Assembly: GCA_037141075.1 (NCBI GenBank)
Contig: JBAXDG010000001.1
Location: 1,811 to 65,810 of the forward strand
Direction of reading: 5' to 3'
Length of the DNA stretch: 64,000 nucleotides
DNA from: Kiritimatiellales bacterium
GTDB lineage: Bacteria; Verrucomicrobiota; Kiritimatiellia; Kiritimatiellales; Tichowtungiaceae
In this document: one piece after another, positions 1,393 to 64,000 of the stretch
Position numbering within the stretch: the first letter of the stretch is position 1
Layout: every line of letters begins with the position of its first letter
The notes under the pieces: generated by a model
What the model was told of the DNA's origin: nothing
What the model saw: the letters and a program-made list of their open reading frames with translations, nothing else
Database searches by the model: none
Position numbers and translations under genes: made by a program

Positions 1393-1414
1393 TCCGTTTT
1401 TCAACCATTGGAAA

Positions 1415-4400
1415 TCAGGCGTGATAATCCTGAATCGGGCGGACATCCCAGTCTTTGCCGTCAATCGCTTTAATAGCGCCGAGGGTGGCGCGGGCGCCGG
1501 ACTCGGTGGTGACGATCGGGATGTTCCGCAGGATGCACTCGGAGCGGATTTTGATTTCGTCCATGCGTGAGACCGGTCCGCTGGGCGTGTTAATGACCAT
1601 GGCGATCTTACCGTCCTGCATGAAGTCGATGATGTTCGGGTGTTGTCCGCTGGCGAGCTTGCAGGTTTCAATGACCTTCAGTCCGGCATCGCCCAACGCC
1701 TTGCCGGTACCTTCGGTGGCGGTCAGCGTGAAGCCAAGGCCAACGAGCGCTTTGCCGATTTCAACCATCCAGCCTTTATCGCGGTCCGTGGCGCTGAGGA
1801 ATACGCACCCTTCGGTCGGGATCATCTGTCCGGCGGCGATCTGCGATTTCCAGTAGGCCATTTCGAACGTTTTATCGATGCCCATCACTTCGCCGGTGGA
1901 TTTCATTTCCGGGCCGAGAATCGGGTCGACGCCCGCAAAACGGTTGAACGGGAAGACGGCTTCTTTGACAGCGAACCAGTCCAGCTTGGCATGCGTTCCG
2001 GAGAGTCCGAGCTGCTTGAGCGTTTTGCCGACGGCGATTTCGGTGGCGATTTTCGCCAGCGGCACGCCGGTGGCTTTCGAAACGTACGGCACGGTGCGCG
2101 AGGCGCGCGGGTTGACTTCGATGACGTAGATGTCATTGCCTTTGACAGCCATCTGCGCGTTCATCAGTCCTTTGACGTTCAGTTCGAGCGCCATGCGGGT
2201 GCAGGCCGCTTCGATTTCTTTGACGATTTTCGGATCGAGCGAGTAGGGCGGAATCGAGCAGGCGCTGTCGCCGGAATGAATGCCGGCAGCTTCGACGTGT
2301 TGCATGACGCCGCCGACATAAACCTCTTTGCCGTCGCAGACGAGGTCCACGTCGATCTCGATCGCGTTTTCGAGGAAGCGGTCGATCAGCACCGGATGGC
2401 CCGGGCTGGCGTTGAACGCGGCGTGGGTGAACGGCACGAATTCGGTTTCGTCGTAGGCGACCATCATCGCGCGTCCGCCGAGCACGAACGACGGGCGGAT
2501 CATGACGGGGAAGCCGATGCGGTGCGCGATTTTCAGCGCGTCGTCCATCGTTTTGGCCGTGCCGCTTTCCGGCTGTTTGAGGTCGAGCTTGATGATCATC
2601 TGGCGGAAGAGTTCGCGGTCTTCGGCCATGGCGATGCTCTTCGGCGAAGTTCCAAGGATTGGAACGCCGGCGGCGAGCAGGCGGTCGGCAAGATTAAGCG
2701 GAGTCTGTCCGCCCATCTGAACGATCATGCCGATCGGCTTTTCCTGTTCGTAGATGTTCATCACATCTTCGAAGGTCAGCGGCTCGAAATAAAGTTTGTC
2801 GGAGGTGTCGTAGTCGGTCGAAACGGTTTCCGGGTTGGAGTTGACCATGATGGCTTCGTAGCCCATTTCGCGCAGCGCCATGACGGTATGCACGCAGGAA
2901 TAGTCGAACTCAATGCCTTGACCGATGCGGTTAGGGCCGGAGCCGAGCACGATGATGCTCTTCTTGCCGGTATGCCGGATTTCGTTGAGGTCGCCGTAGC
3001 TGGAATAGAAGTAAGGAGTGGCGGCTTCGAACTCGCCAGCGCAGGTGTCCACCAGACGGTAAACCGGAAGGACGCCGGCTTTCTTGCGTTCCTCACGGAA
3101 GGCGAGCGGATCCTGTCCACGCAGTACGGCAATCTGAGCGTCGGAGAAACCGTTGAGTTTGACCTTGCGGAGCAGGTCGACGTCGAGCGGCATGTCTTTG
3201 GGCGCGTCGAGCAGTTCGCGCTCCATTTCTACGATCTGCAGAATGTTGTCGATGAACCACGGATCAATTTTCGTGATCTCGGCAATCTTCTGGACGGTGT
3301 AACCCTGCTTGAGCGCGACCTTGATAGCGATGCACCGCTCGGTCTTGGTGCGGGTCAGCCATTCGTCGAGCCGGTCGAGCGGCACTTTGGCTTCGGCTTT
3401 CAGGTCGAGACCGTCCACGCCGATTTCCAAGGATCGGAATGCTTTCTGGAGTGCTTCCTTAAAGTTACGGCCGATCGCCATCGTTTCGCCGACCGATTTC
3501 ATACTGACGCCGAGGTGCGCGTCCGCCGACGGGAATTTTTCGAAAGCGAAGCGCGGCATTTTGACGACGCAGTAGTCGATGGACGGTTCGAAGCAGGACG
3601 GCGTCTTCTTGGTGATGTCGTTCGGCAGTTCGTCGAGCGTGTAACCAACGGCGAGCTTGGCGGCCAGTTTAGCGATCGGGAAGCCAGTGGCTTTGGAGGC
3701 CAGCGCCGAGGAGCGCGAAACGCGCGGATTCATTTCGATGATCGCCATGCGGCCGGTTTCGGGATGGATACAGAACTGAACGTTCGATCCACCGGTTTCA
3801 ACGCCGACGGCGCGCATGACTTTGATGGAAGCGTCGCGCATCGTCTGATATTCGCGGTCGGTCAATGTCTGGGTCGGCGCGACGGTGATGCTGTCGCCGG
3901 TATGAATGCCCATCGGATCCATGTTTTCGATGGAGCAGATGATGACGACGTTATCCTTCTTGTCGCGCATGACCTCCATCTCGAACTCTTTCCAGCCATA
4001 GACCGATTCTTCGAGAAGCACTTCGCTGCTAAGGCTGGCTTCCAAACCGCGTCTGGCGATTTGTTTCAGCTCATCCATGTTGTTAGCAATGCCGCCGCCG
4101 GTGCCGCCGAGCGTAAAGCTAGGTCGCACGATGATCGGAAAGGGAAGTTCTTTTTCAGCGACGTGGATTGCTTCTTCCAGATTATGAACATGGAAGCTCT
4201 TGAGCGTTTCGATGCCCGCTTCCTTCATGACGGATTTGAAGATGTCGCGCTCTTCGCCGCGCATGATGGCGTCATAGTTGGCGCCGATCATCTCGACGTT
4301 GTACTTTTTCAGCACGCCGCTTCGATAAAGCTTCATGGCTGTGTTGAGCGCGGTTTGTCCGCCGAGCGTCGGTAGCAAGGCGTCGGGCTTTTCTTTGATG

Positions 4401-4633
4401 ATGATCTTTTCGACGGTTTCCGGAGTGATCGGCTCGATGTAAGTCGCATCCGCCGTGGCCGGATCGGTCATGATCGTGGCCGGATTAGAGTTGATCAGCG
4501 TGACGCGGAAGCCTTCTTCACGGAGTGCTTTGCACGCCTGCGTTCCGGAGTAGTCGAATTCGCACGCCTGGCCGATAACAATCGGGCCGGAGCCGATGAT
4601 CAGGATGTGGTGGATGTCAGTTCTTTTAGGCAT
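1415..4633 (-). CDS. carB: Carbamoyl-phosphate synthase large subunit
   Basis: 1072 aa; [35 protein letters not shown], duplicated ATP-grasp halves, C-terminal MGS-like domain. Confidence 0.98.
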
Positions 4634-4641
4634 AGGTACCT

Positions 4642-62220: not shown

Positions 62221-62440
62221 TGTCATTACCCAGAATCAGGGCATAAAAAATCCGGTTTTTGTCAGCCGAAGTGATGAGGTGGAGCGTGATCGCCGAGCAC
62301 GCTTCCTCCTGTGGCGGACAAGTAAAACACGCCCGGCCCTTCGATTAACTCAGGGCAGGCGGTCGCGTTTCACCCGTTATCTTCAAAAGAAGACCGCTTC
62401 TGCGCTTGAACAATTTTCCGGGCCGTGTAGGCTCTCCCGC

Positions 62441-63466
62441 ATGGCTGCAAAAACCGATAAAAAAGAAGGCGCCTCCAATCTCGAGGCAGTACTCGCTGAC
62501 ATCAAAAAACAGTACGGCGACGGCGCAATTGTGCGTCTCGGCGACGAAGCGGGTCCCCGTAAAATTCCATGTATTTCCACCGGCGCGCTGACGCTGGATA
62601 TCGCGCTCGGCATCGGCGGCGTTCCGCGCGGCCGCGTGATCGAAATCTTCGGCCCGGAATCTTCCGGTAAAACCACGCTGGTTTCCCACATCATCGCTAA
62701 TGTCCAGCGGGAAGGCGGCACGGCGGCTTTTATTGATACCGAACATGCGCTCGATCCGGGCTATGCGCAGAAGATCGGCGTGAACCTGAACGACCTGCTG
62801 GTTTCGCAACCCGACTCCGGCGAAGAAGCCCTCAACATCTGCGAGGCGCTGGTGAAGAGCAACTCAATCGACGTCGTGGTCGTGGACTCCGTCGCGGCGC
62901 TCGCGCCGCGCGCCGAGCTCGACGGCGAAATGGGCCAGTCGCACGTTGGATTGCAGGCGCGTTTGATGTCTCAGGCTCTGCGCAAGCTGACGTCGGCGAT
63001 TGCCCGCTCGAACTGCTGCTGTATTTTCACCAATCAGATCCGCGAAAAAGTCGGCGTGATGTTCGGCAGTCCTGAAACGACGCCCGGCGGCCGCGCGCTG
63101 AAGTTTTATTCTTCCGTGCGCCTCGACATCCGCCGTATCGGTCAGCTTAAAAACACCGACGGCTCGATCTATGGCAACCGGACCAAGGTTAAGGTGGTCA
63201 AAAACAAAGTGGCTCCGCCGTTCACCATGGCCGAGTTTGACATCCTTTACGCCGAAGGCATTTCATGGACCGGCTCGATTGTCGATGCCGGCACCGACTG
63301 TGGCATCATTGAAAAGAAAGGCTCGTGGCTTTCTTACAATGGCCAGCAGCTTGGGCAGGGCCGCGACGGCGCGCGCAAAGCGCTGATGGAAGACAAAAAG
63401 CTGGCGGACGAACTGGCCAAAAAGATCAAAGAAACCGCCAAAGCCAAAACAGACGGAAGCGAATAA
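62441..63466 (+). CDS. recA: Recombinase A
   Basis: [55 protein letters not shown]. Confidence 0.99.
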
Positions 63467-63480
63467 GGCTGGAGTTTCCA

Positions 63481-64000
63481 ATGTCTGGAAAAATTCTTTT
63501 TACGTGCTTTGCGGCCTTCTGTTTGATTTTTTCCGGGTGCAAGAAGGCGACGTTTGACGGCGCGAAGGCGATGGCCGAGACCGAAGCGCTGGTGAAGATT
63601 ACTCCTCGTGATGCGGGCGGCGGCGGTGCGCGACGCGCTTCGGTCTTGCTGGAAAGCAAACTGAAGGCTCTCGGACTCAAGACAGCCATCGACACTTTTT
63701 CCGAAGAGACGCCGAGCGGGAAAATGCACTTCAACAATGTGCTGGGACGCATCCCGGGCAAGACGAGACGTCTAATTGTTCTTGCGTCGCACTTCGACAC
63801 CAAGAGCGGTATTTCCAAAGATTTTCAAGGGGCGAACGATTCCGGATCCAGTTCCGGCGTTTTGCTGGAGCTGGCGCGGGTTCTTGTTGAGCGCGGCCCG
63901 TTTGAAACGGAATTTCTGATCGCGTTTCTGGACGGCGAGGAATGCCGCAAAGAGTACGGACCGCATGACGGCCTGCACGGCAGCCGGCATCTCGCAAAGC
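63481..64000 (+). CDS. M28-family peptidase / glutaminyl-cyclase-like lipoprotein (runs off the right edge)
   Basis: Not in the ORF track; my translation gives MSGKILFTCFAAFCLIFSGC (lipobox) ... ASHFDTK, GANDSGSS, FLDGEE, DGLHGSR. Confidence 0.85.
   Translation, partial: MSGKILFTCFAAFCLIFSGCKKATFDGAKAMAETEALVKITPRDAGGGGARRASVLLESKLKALGLKTAIDTFSEETPSGKMHFNNVLGRIPGKTRRLIVLASHFDTKSGISKDFQGANDSGSSSGVLLELARVLVERGPFETEFLIAFLDGEECRKEYGPHDGLHGSRHLAK

Follow-up and report, generated by a model that had tools for sequence, protein, structure and literature searches.

The window analysed here, a 64-kb stretch of DNA from a Kiritimatiellales bacterium, encodes proteins such as CarA, CarB, ThrC and ArgS, and copies of a 15-base palindrome, TTCCAA-N3-TTGGAA (a 6-3-6 spaced dyad), lie both inside and between its genes. 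The features are listed below; the gene calls in these loci are rough ones made for this analysis.

1399-1413: one-mismatch copy from the motif scan (TTTCAACCATTGGAA), intergenic, 2 bp 3' of the carB stop
1415-4633, minus strand: carB
2650-2664: perfect copy in carB (VPILGT; sense strand GTT CCA ATC CTT GGA ACn)
3425-3439: one-mismatch copy in carB (FRSLE), mismatch forced by a conserved Arg codon
6395-6409: one-mismatch copy in guaA (IPILGI, GATase active-site region)
6979-6993: perfect copy in carA (LPTFGI)
9385-9399: one-mismatch copy in mazG (FQSLE)
11981-11995: perfect copy in a pyrK-like gene (FQGLE)
13383-13397: perfect copy in pyrD (IPIIGM)
13758-13803: doublet of one-mismatch copies (13758-13772 and 13789-13803), 31 bp between centres, in a poorly conserved membrane-protein gene (13582-14136)
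16790-16804: perfect copy in a hybrid sensor kinase gene (YSNLWK, codon phase 2)
22720-22765: doublet in cinA, perfect copy 22720-22734 (FQPLE) and two-mismatch copy ATCCAGGGCTTGGAA 22751-22765, 31 bp apart
23578-23592: perfect copy in a purine/uridine phosphorylase-family gene (VPNLGR)
25612-25626: one-mismatch copy in dapB (VPDIGK), mismatch forced by the Asp codon
27558-27572: one-mismatch copy in a divergent intergenic region
35872-35886: one-mismatch copy in gspF (IPLLGN), forced mismatch
37886-37900: one-mismatch copy in a pseudopilin-region ORF (VPMTGT), forced mismatch
44308-44322: perfect copy in the divergent intergenic region between a DUF362 gene and thrC
44687-44701: one-mismatch copy in thrC (FHVLE), forced mismatch
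45575-45589: one-mismatch copy in thrC (FQSSE), forced mismatch
52699-52713: one-mismatch copy in an indolepyruvate oxidoreductase alpha gene (ISERWK), forced mismatch
57439-57484: doublet in an aminotransferase gene, two-mismatch copy TTTCAGGGATTGGAA 57439-57453 and one-mismatch copy 57470-57484, 31 bp apart
59121-59135: one-mismatch intergenic copy, 14 bp 3' of the stop of a DNA-alkylation-repair gene
59149-59856, minus strand: DNA-alkylation-repair gene
60721-60735: one-mismatch copy in argS (FQPSE)
61368-61382: one-mismatch copy in argS (LPNLGK)
63476-63490: one-mismatch copy, 10 bp past the recA stop and overlapping the start of an M28 peptidase gene

The spaced palindrome in the window

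A scan for TTCCAANNNTTGGAA recovered 8 perfect matches, the number given in the original prediction, and 26 matches at up to one mismatch; the 18 one-mismatch copies among them bear out the claimed enrichment but not the exact count of 17. The outermost copies were correctly placed (the first at 1399, the last at 63476-63490), as were the 4 intergenic copies and the single one overlapping a start codon, while 21 rather than 20 lie in coding sequences. Mismatches in the one-mismatch copies are indeed mostly transitions (16/18), and 15/18 fall at the inner positions 5, 6, 10 and 11. TTCCRR-N3-YYGGAA, close to the form first proposed, is a fair consensus; read strictly, its core is TTCC-N7-GGAA, with RR/YY on the inner side.

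The motif is AT-rich, the host genome has 56-61% GC, and the copies are, as had been claimed, far above chance: dinucleotide-preserving shuffles of the window gave 0.00 perfect copies and 0.21 at up to one mismatch (maximum 2). An unbiased scan of all dyads ranked TTCCA-N5-TGGAA first (16 observed versus 0.17 expected from half-site counts), and a spacing scan of TTCC-Nx-GGAA gave 29 occurrences at x=7 and 0-8 at every other x from 0 to 14. Codon-aware shuffling, a check proposed beforehand, does not reproduce the counts either: synonymous-codon shuffles confined to the 64 self-trained gene calls in the window left on average 1.0 perfect copies and 3.7 with one mismatch versus the 8 and 18 observed, and those left are essentially the intergenic ones, which stay unshuffled. 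The motif is real, and its action is at the DNA level.

Point substitutions, codons and amino acids

Relative to orthologues, motif copies are point substitutions with no insertion, and those in coding sequences occupy all three codon phases. At the perfect copy in carB, for example, motif-free orthologues carry TGCCGAGAATCGGCA, four symmetric synonymous changes away. The carA copy is perfect also in L002, L198 and the distant L011 and is missing from L003, L008 and L009; the guaA site is perfect in L002, and the pyrD site is identical in L198 and L199 and decayed in L003. The argS site at 61368-61382 is common to all 16 clade members sampled at the locus (L205-L220), and in motif-poor MAGs its outer TT is now TC, CT or GT. 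A motif copy also trails the carB stop in L002, L012 and L003 (with 2 mismatches in the last), in flanks that cannot be aligned.

The amino acids permit a perfect motif at 14 window sites, which hold 7 perfect copies, 5 with one mismatch and 2 with two, whereas the mode for permissive sites under codon shuffling is 3-4 mismatches. Independent relatives provide 42 permissive sites (30 perfect, 10 one-mismatch and 2 two-mismatch). Among window sites able to reach one mismatch, 9/22 are at that minimum versus 0.1 expected, with conversion at 8/10 of those that have the forced mismatch at inner position 5 or 6 and at 1/12 of those that have it in TTCC/GGAA (Fisher p=0.0015). Conversion depends on recognition, as copies are found only where TTCC/GGAA can be kept.

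The motif has altered both codons and amino-acid sequences. Motif-rich genomes have 0.18-0.22 permissive amino-acid contexts per kb and motif-free Kiritimatiellota 0.023, an 8-10x difference. The argS copy at 60721-60735 encodes FQPSE where motif-free relatives encode FKPAE, and the site therefore cost two amino-acid changes in ArgS. This replacement occurred in parallel in two subclades with no rise in flank identity, and no recombination tract was detectable around the one incongruent site examined.

Doublets and distribution among lineages

Paired copies lie 31-32 bp or 22 bp apart from centre to centre (3 or 2 helical turns), mostly between genes, and are in helical phase. For neighbours within 120 bp of each other in the window's clade, 33/44 distances are 22 or 30-32 bp, where about 0.8 would be expected by chance, and in distant motif-bearing lineages 20/21 fall into these classes. 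The locus of the 13758-13803 doublet holds three copies in L198, at spacings of 31 and 22 bp. The sequence of the spacers between paired copies is not conserved. Within a copy, about one helical turn separates the centres of the two half-sites. The pairing of copies at 2 or 3 turns indicates a putative symmetric protein that would bind double-strand DNA cooperatively.

Copy density is about 5-fold higher intergenically than in genes, and many copies lie less than 60 bp from gene 3' ends. Every intergenic type carries copies, divergent promoter regions included, and canonical terminators showed no enrichment in positions 1-20 kb. In the window's clade 58% of copies are inside genes, and in the distant lineages nearly all belong to intergenic doublets.

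In 172.6 kb made up of the window and relatives, TTCCRR-N3-YYGGAA was counted 58 times, versus 3 in 1.37 Mb from other phyla. Freshwater Kiritimatiellales MAGs of one family-level clade, together with at least three distant lineages of Kiritimatiellota, show about 150-fold enrichment; in about 55 other relatives the motif is close to zero. The motif-positive groups (the window's clade, L230, L245/L271/L258 and L011) are each surrounded by negative sisters, among them lineages of similar GC content. The motif is genome-wide in the window's lineage, with hundreds of copies in a few freshwater Kiritimatiellota lineages, and its density extrapolates to more than 1000 copies per genome. This distribution is patchy, with decay: motif-poor clade members keep the amino-acid footprint, including the permissive contexts, while their synonymous positions have decayed, which suggests that the system was lost there.

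The original prediction was right that the enrichment extends beyond the window and that no known site has this sequence, as we found no matching site in the literature and no match in Rfam. Its dimeric DNA-binding protein has gained support from the half-site phasing, the TTCC/GGAA dependence and the doublets, and the motif could not be linked to any reader protein, competence gene set or methyltransferase. The doublets, the intergenic excess, the patchy gain and loss and the amino-acid changes go beyond what it described.

Possible readers of the motif

Our best guess, which we offer tentatively, is that the motif is a self-DNA tag resembling HIP1 and DUS, spread via recognition-dependent drive. 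HIP1 (GCGATCGC) and other cyanobacterial highly iterated palindromes are also short palindromes that exceed expectation by 1-3 orders of magnitude and arise through substitution within and between genes, with one-off variants enriched too and an unsettled function for which nucleoid and transformation roles have both been proposed. Their density differs among related genomes, some of which lost the motif (PMC4390886, PMC5861425), and HIP1, itself palindromic, is now tied to transformation (bioRxiv 10.1101/2024.09.10.611283; 10.64898/2026.06.24.733823). Unlike HIP1, a contiguous 8-mer, the motif described here has its 15 bp arranged as a spaced dyad; it is unrelated in sequence, AT-rich, found in another phylum and arranged in phased doublets, and it has no known cognate methyltransferase.

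The DUS of Neisseriaceae and USS of Pasteurellaceae, with about 12 specified bases and about 1 copy per 1-3 kb, match it in how densely they occur, in their information content and in lying within ORFs (in every frame, wherever the protein allows), and they too show a non-coding excess, a graded enrichment of mismatched forms and lineage specificity. Their effect on protein sequences is explicable by molecular drive, as has been proposed (PMC1939737). However, DUS and USS are asymmetric rather than palindromic and lack helical phasing, and their role in uptake has been demonstrated experimentally, whereas for the present motif such a role is a proposal. Simultaneous binding of two DUS or USS is not known, and PMC1939737 argues that it would cause clustering, the pattern of the present motif. 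Phasing along the helix is more characteristic of cytoplasmic regulators and nucleoid proteins, which counts against an uptake tag, as does the lack of a recombination tract at the incongruent argS site, and we know of no report of natural transformation for Kiritimatiellota.

The main rival, which we consider unlikely on balance, is that these are sites of an architectural or nucleoid-associated protein, or else of a factor at supercoil or transcription-unit boundaries, whose dimer would oligomerise over phased sites under weak selection per site in a very large population, with no link to DNA exchange. Drive and such weak selection yield the same sequence pattern, and the dyad with its half-sites one turn apart, the phased doublets, the excess between genes and near 3' ends, the intergenic doublets of distant lineages and the lack of terminator enrichment all fit this explanation. 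Lrp/FFRP-family arrays and ComK boxes share the architecture, with at least two dyads of about 13-15 bp and short central spacer, 2-3 helical turns apart, bound cooperatively by dimers, although these are promoter-level regulatory sites with a degenerate consensus rather than a high-information word saturating coding sequence. The sites matS, SBS (SlmA), NBS (Noc) and parS are likewise 12-16 bp palindromes bound by dimeric proteins and often intragenic, but they are limited to particular regions, reach only tens of copies per genome and differ in sequence. A nucleoid role has also been proposed for HIP1 by Xu et al. (PMC5861425). However, known nucleoid proteins lack sites so information-rich (>20 bits) at about 0.4 per kb, and in genes such as carB, argS and thrC it is difficult to explain why selection on single sites should prevail over both the codons used and the amino acids encoded. 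The presence of sites in all intergenic types argues against a strict 3'-end role, and repeated loss and decay inside one family would be unusual for a core architectural protein.

It is improbable that a HIP1-type palindrome is read here by an orphan or restriction-modification-derived methyltransferase or endonuclease, with methylated sites gaining an advantage in repair, by escaping restriction or through transformation that depends on methylation. An interrupted palindrome like this one would be a typical type II specificity (CC-N7-GG resembles BslI sites, CCA-N5-TGG those of PflMI), and a patchy, horizontally moving determinant suits restriction-modification genes. HIP variants co-occur with cognate methyltransferases (PMC4390886), and outer-position variants of the present motif are mostly C-to-T at position 3 (9/12). 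Yet the window has no methyltransferase or restriction gene, active restriction-modification sites are usually avoided rather than enriched, the changes creating outer positions are transversions (G-to-T, C-to-A) and not deamination, and helical phasing is left unexplained.

A REP/REPIN-like mobile element spread by the RAYT-like Y1 transposase at 200-1192 (Pfam Y1_Tnp; NCBIfam REP_Tyr_transpos 56 bits, below the cut-off) is very improbable. REP, BIME and REPIN sequences also form intergenic palindromic pairs or clusters, often right past stop codons and patchy among genomes, much like the doublets at gene ends, and the L271 doublet can form a 15-bp stem as single-stranded DNA (-13.4 kcal/mol). 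However, REPs are strictly extragenic, 20-40 bp long, tagged with GTAG/CGTC and copies of one another (PMC3733652), whereas the present motif has 15 bp, no such tag and unconserved flanks and spacers. Most clade genomes lack a RAYT-like homologue, and the closest ones (63-73% identity) are in motif-free genomes with no copies nearby; this lack of co-occurrence and the intragenic copies made by substitution largely refute the link.

Least credible of all are an RNA-level element, a hairpin of the form UUCCAA-NNN-UUGGAA, and an origin in codon or mutational bias; within the reach of sequence analysis both are refuted. The palindrome would yield the same, weakly folding hairpin from either transcribed strand, but its stem contributes only -3.6 to -4.6 kcal/mol, sense-strand G-U is not preferred over A-C among transition variants (5 vs 6 in the window, 12 vs 16 in relatives, 17 vs 22 in total), two discrete spacing classes one helical turn apart lack an RNA rationale, Rfam has no such element, codon shuffles do not reproduce the counts and sisters of similar GC lack the motif.

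If the motif is a self-DNA tag, TTCC(A/G)(A/G)-N3-(C/T)(C/T)GGAA would be the recognition site of a symmetric, probably dimeric, double-strand DNA-binding protein that binds cooperatively at two sites 2 or 3 helical turns apart, and whose gene would have been gained and lost among Kiritimatiellota lineages. Tagged homologous DNA may be favoured at a step of DNA exchange such as uptake, nuclease protection or recombination, and we infer that motif-bearing alleles would then replace motif-free ones by molecular drive, making a benefit per site unnecessary. Wherever the protein is present, point substitutions would convert any sequence able to become a site while sparing protein function, overriding codon preference and at times bringing conservative amino-acid changes, and once it is lost, synonymous positions would drift back. 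The motif points to an undescribed DNA-reading protein that may tag whole genomes in these lineages.

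Counts, null models and origin of the copies

A scan of the window with the pattern TTCCAANNNTTGGAA returned 8 perfect matches to TTCCAA-N3-TTGGAA and 26 with at most one mismatch, spanning positions 1399 to 63490; by number of mismatches (0/1/2), the copies number 8, 18, and 10. The 8 perfect copies agree with the original prediction, while its 17 one-mismatch copies become 18. Shuffles of the window that preserved dinucleotides gave 0.00 perfect copies and 0.21 with at most one mismatch. TTCCA-N5-TGGAA was also the top-ranked dyad in an unbiased scan of all inverted dyads (16 observed vs 0.17 expected from half-site counts), and TTCC-Nx-GGAA occurred 29 times at x=7 and only 0-8 times at any other spacing. 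Mismatches in the one-mismatch copies are mostly transitions (16/18), as had been proposed together with the consensus TTCCRR-N3-YYGGAA, and their concentration at inner positions 5, 6, 10, and 11 (15/18) indicates a strict core, TTCC-N7-GGAA, within that consensus. The flanks show a preference for T at -1 and A at +1.

To separate the motif from codon effects, we used 64 genes called with a self-trained codon model (93% coding), many of them checked by Pfam or NCBIfam. Synonymous-codon shuffling within these genes, which had been named beforehand as a refuting test, left on average 1.0 perfect copy and 3.7 with one mismatch against the observed 8 and 18, and the copies left were essentially the unshuffled intergenic ones; the motif thus withstood this test. 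The synonymous shuffles, together with the use of all three codon phases (FQxLE, xPxxGx, and xSNxWK), rule out codon usage or a protein motif as the cause.

At orthologous positions, ordinary codons are replaced by the motif in gap-free alignments of unchanged length, with substitutions as the only difference, which rules out insertion of a small element into genes. In carB, for example, TGCCGAGAATCGGCA in the relative L003 and the outgroups corresponds to TTCCAAGGATTGGAA in the window, by way of four symmetrically placed synonymous changes, in the codons for Val, Pro, Leu, and Gly, toward non-preferred codons ending in A or T. An mRNA hairpin was also considered, and it is ruled out by the absence of a sense-strand G-U preference (compatible transition variants were 5 vs 6 in the window and 12 vs 16 in relatives), the weak folding of single motif units, and the lack of any match to the motif in Rfam. 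With the three codon phases, these results place the signal in double-stranded DNA rather than in mRNA or protein.

Genomic location, doublets and spread among lineages

In the window's clade, a family-level group of freshwater Kiritimatiellales metagenome-assembled genomes (MAGs), 87 of 149 copies lie in genes, mostly singly, and 62 are intergenic, more than half of them in doublets. The density is 0.46 per kb overall, with 0.31 per kb in coding sequence vs 1.5 per kb in intergenic sequence. Many intergenic copies sit 1-60 bp past a stop codon, in the window after carB, recA, and an alkylation-repair gene. A strict 3'-end or terminator role can nonetheless be set aside, as divergent promoter regions bear the motif as well (1.4 per kb, compared to 3.0 in convergent and 1.5 in tandem regions), and because every intergenic type has copies, relaxed constraint accounts for the location better than a strict 3'-end function. 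Across window positions 1-20000, neither intrinsic-terminator-like sites (32 vs 27 +/- 5 in shuffled sequence) nor sigma-70-like promoters (9 vs 8.5) were enriched. In distant lineages, nearly all copies are intergenic doublets.

These doublets, absent from the original prediction, were found in an analysis of neighbor distances up to 120 bp between sites with at most two mismatches. In the window's clade, 44 distances included 31 bp twenty times, 32 bp five times, 30 bp twice, and 22 bp six times; the 21 distances from distant lineages included 32 bp twelve times, 31 bp four times, 22 bp twice, and 21 and 33 bp once each. Random placement would give about 0.8 and 0.2 such pairs, respectively, by arithmetic from site densities. 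Three doublets, each spaced exactly 31 bp, lie in the window:

13758/13789, motif doublet
22720/22751, motif doublet
57439/57470, motif doublet

The first was considered as an operator cluster of an autoregulated gene, but this was rejected because it falls within a genuine ORF that is translationally coupled and has a signal or transmembrane segment. The two discrete distance classes are one helical turn apart, which would align the two dyads on one face of the helix, and the half-site centers of the motif are 9-11 bp apart. Judged from sequence, phased doublets and this half-site spacing are the classic signature of cooperatively binding dimers.

The sharpest example is L271 (CAIVKH010000238.1, 1108-20149, GC 0.60), a locus from a distant lineage with 13 perfect and one one-mismatch copies of the tighter form TTCCAATSATTGGAA. 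All copies here belong to doublets with a spacing of 32-33 bp that recur every 2-4 kb, and seven doublets in 21.7 kb have the form TTCCAATSATTGGAA-N17-TTCCAATSATTGGAA with unrelated spacers. Most of them carry a central TCA in one copy and TGA in the other; as these paired triplets are complementary only in L271 and not in other lineages, a long hairpin formed by the doublet was rejected. In another relative, L002, two motif-like copies 22 bp apart were seen 3' of carB (7402-7460), complementary over 12 bp: TTTTCCAGAGGT...ACCTCTGGAAAA.

Searches with CarB and ArgS place the window among freshwater Kiritimatiellales MAGs labelled Pontiellaceae, Tichowtungia sp., or Verrucomicrobia; its genome is also represented by the fragmentary MAG GCA_964384695.1 and is present in lake and sediment metagenomes. 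The window and its close relatives (172.6 kb together) hold 58 copies of the consensus TTCCRR-N3-YYGGAA, vs 3 in 1.37 Mb from other phyla, an enrichment of about 150-fold over other taxa. It is thus not limited to the window, and close relatives carry the motif in regions non-syntenic with it as well. We then surveyed 80 Kiritimatiellota and Lentisphaerota loci around argS on an ArgS tree, all relatives being represented by MAG fragments, no locus exceeding about 22 kb, with approximate gene calls. The motif appears at three places in this tree: the window's clade (ArgS identity 81% or more), almost all of which carries it; L230, which is nested among motif-negative Pontiella-like genomes; and the L245/L271/L258 group, whose sisters are motif-negative. 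The remaining loci (about 55, about 0.83 Mb) held 3 perfect and 14 one-mismatch copies, and the CarB set adds one more motif-bearing case, L011. Such a patchy distribution of an identical word implies either transfer of its determinant or many losses. A survey of relatives had been suggested for finding a co-occurring gene family; among the loci examined, the only proteins common to motif-positive loci and confined to them were housekeeping ones (YggS-, ProC-, and glycosyltransferase-like, as recognized by eye in their sequences).

Conversion of permissive sites, protein changes and decay

For each gene position, we determined the minimum number of mismatches to the motif compatible with the amino acid sequence. 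The window has 14 sites that permit a perfect motif, of which 7 are perfect, 5 have one mismatch, and 2 have two (shuffles gave none better than one mismatch, with a mode of 3-4), and 42 permissive sites in relatives independent of the window comprise 30 perfect, 10 one-mismatch, and 2 two-mismatch copies; because most permissive contexts arose together with the motif, these saturation figures are partly circular and mean that the motif is found wherever the protein has tolerated it. Sites limited to one mismatch reached their minimum in 9/22 cases (0.1 expected), and those limited to two did so in only 4 of 169 (0.9 expected). Among one-mismatch-limited sites, conversion occurred at 8/10 with the forced mismatch at inner positions 5/6 and at 1/12 with it in TTCC/GGAA (Fisher p=0.0015). 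This threshold behavior is what would be expected from a reader, a predicted sequence-specific protein that recognizes the motif, and context-dependent mutation bias would not produce it.

Contexts permitting a perfect motif number 0.18-0.22 per kb in motif-rich genomes vs 0.023 per kb in motif-free Kiritimatiellota, indicating that most of them arose together with the motif. At position 60721 in argS, the window encodes FQPSE where motif-free relatives have FKPAE. The FQPSE state is found in two subclades, and as flank identity is not raised there, it points to parallel change and not to recent recombination importing motif alleles.

The motif-poor members of the window's clade (L003, L207, L209, and L001/L215) retain 0.14 permissive contexts per kb, with the DNA degraded: of 15 such contexts, 1 is perfect, 2 carry one mismatch, 6 carry two, and the other 6 carry three or four. 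The argS site at 61368, shared across the clade, has lost its outer TT in the motif-poor genomes. In comparisons based on few independent sites, synonymous third positions at motif sites differ between L003 and the window in 15/28 cases vs 33% elsewhere; the figures are 1/16 vs 30% for motif-rich L002, 0/8 vs 27% for motif-rich L005, 3/28 vs 21% for L198, but 3/14 vs 22% for L199. The simplest reading of these sequences is that the system was ancestral to the clade and was lost in some branches, leaving an amino acid fossil behind.

The motif is a real, lineage-specific word that acts at the level of DNA, depends on recognition, and is cooperatively spaced; it overrides codon choices and some amino acid choices, and it decays when lost. 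We infer that its reader is a dimeric, oligomerizing protein whose gene moves and is lost.

Candidate explanations and significance

Literature searches returned no mention of the motif, in line with the original prediction that it is not an already described site, nor of any hyperabundant word in Kiritimatiellota. We class it with the hyperabundant genomic words, among which its spaced dyad, helically phased doublets, and natural gain/loss/decay series are distinctive. To our knowledge, HIP1 is the only other hyperabundant palindrome. HIP1-type palindromes are 15-300-fold over-represented in genic and intergenic DNA and are made by substitution, as is the motif (about 150-fold, all phases, no insertion), but HIP1 is GCGATCGC or a derivative and belongs to cyanobacteria. 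DNA uptake sequences (DUS/USS) are likewise short (about 9-12 bases), occur about once per kb within ORFs with a non-coding excess, and have enriched mismatched forms, all of which the motif resembles; they are asymmetric and bound singly, however, whereas the motif is a perfect dyad with doublets at 22 or 31-32 bp. Competent cells preferentially take up DNA bearing these sequences via a specific receptor. DNA-uptake-relevant genes in the window consist only of recA, cinA, rdgC, and a type II secretion cluster at 31-43 kb; the window encodes no methyltransferase and no restriction or competence-specific gene. Several DNA-transaction genes lie in the window:

22108-22869, cinA
25883-26986, rdgC-like gene
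49299-50773, scpA/scpB
62441-63466, recA

Motif copies were observed within cinA and directly past recA.

Tentatively, we favor a HIP1/DUS-like self-DNA tag, in which a bias in DNA exchange would create molecular drive and so spread the word. This reading is preferred because the force tolerates protein costs, because its determinant is gained and lost, because the motif's information content and copy number match those of uptake sequences (PMC1939737), and because HIP1 has now been linked to transformation (10.1101/2024.09.10.611283; 10.64898/2026.06.24.733823). Its chief competitor, which we consider unlikely, invokes an architectural or nucleoid protein with sites maintained by selection. 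The palindrome and its phasing fit such a protein better than they fit a tag. The nucleoid sites matS, SBS, NBS, and parS are dimer-bound palindromes of 12-16 bp, and from its symmetry and phasing the motif may be bound by a dimer as well. Those nucleoid sites, however, have tens of copies, regional restriction, and known consensus sequences, whereas the motif has 26 copies in 64 kb and a different sequence, and no precedent is known for an architectural site of such density and information content. A methyltransferase-linked variant, which overlaps both readings, seems quite improbable. HIP1 has cognate DNA methyltransferases that recognize its core; the window encodes no methyltransferase.

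A REP/REPIN explanation was raised by a RAYT-like gene at the start of the window:

200-1192 (+), RAYT-like Y1 transposase of 330 aa, with an N-terminal IS200/RAYT-like Y1 domain and a C-terminal extension of about 200 aa without a family match

The proteins nearest to it (63-73% identity) are dispersed over Pontiella, further Kiritimatiellales, and a single contig labelled Desulfatirhabdium; relatives in Terrimicrobiaceae come next (38-44%). A REP origin is rejected, as these relatives do not track the motif: the closest sit in motif-free genomes with no motif around them, although REPs flank their cognate RAYT gene, and no homolog was found in the 3 Mb of loci examined and no close ortholog in most clade genomes. 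The motif also lacks every REP hallmark (PMC3733652), since REPs are solely extragenic, 20-40 bp long, mutual copies with a GTAG/CGTC tag, whereas the motif is often genic, has unrelated spacers, and shows no conservation beyond its -1 T and +1 A. PF05635/TIGR02436, the 23S rRNA intervening-sequence protein (a four-helix bundle, Avd-like), was examined as a co-occurring family:

4683-5069 (-), PF05635/TIGR02436 gene between carB and guaA
12270-12620 (+), PF05635/TIGR02436 gene between pyrK and pyrD
36343-36873 (+), PF05635/TIGR02436 gene between gspF and gspG
55711-56055 (+), PF05635/TIGR02436 gene between paaK and ACT

It was rejected, as these are variable cassettes absent from other motif-rich loci. 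For three of the copies the flanks were read, and each of these is enclosed by separate inverted repeats of low complexity: (ATGAA)n, (GGAAG)n, and (CTAAA)n. L198, the nearest relative, lacks the 12.3 kb copy, and L008 lacks the one between carB and guaA, so the genes act like small mobile cassettes. Phage enrichment can be dismissed: viral contigs scanned with TTCCAAGGATTGGAA gave single chance matches only, and at the three multi-copy loci the matches came from repeated protein sequence in unrelated, AT-rich or repetitive contigs.

Two other regions of the window deserve mention. In the stretch of lowest GC (45778-47879, 0.507), a HEPN_AbiU2 gene precedes one for a Sel1-repeat/trypsin-like protease; neither gene has motif copies, and the stretch is possibly a small defense islet. 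An ankyrin-repeat protein without a Pfam entry (10347-11333, +), strongly similar in NCBIfam to Legionella Ank effectors, adjoins a NarL-type response regulator and has orthologs in only two clade genomes.

The origin and function of hyperabundant words has been a question for about thirty years for HIP1 and is still debated for uptake sequences. The motif is an independent example in another phylum, and three features make the question tractable: the spaced dyad and phased doublets point to a dimer-of-dimers reader; motif-rich, decaying, and motif-free genomes are adjacent in the tree, so phylogenetic profiling should reveal the responsible gene; and synonymous and amino acid changes in universal genes (such as carB, carA, guaA, and argS) give a direct measure of the force. 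In these genomes a DNA word, rather than protein function, sets part of the codon and amino acid usage, which matters for annotation and evolutionary-rate studies. It is a more doubtful proposal that a horizontally mobile, sequence-specific reader imposes the 15-bp palindromic tag genome-wide, rewriting housekeeping codons and amino acids, and that the tag decays after the reader is lost. If true, this would extend uptake-sequence-like self-recognition beyond Proteobacteria and Cyanobacteria for the first time, with a dimeric and cooperative reader that would be directly identifiable through the gain/loss/decay series in lake Kiritimatiellota.
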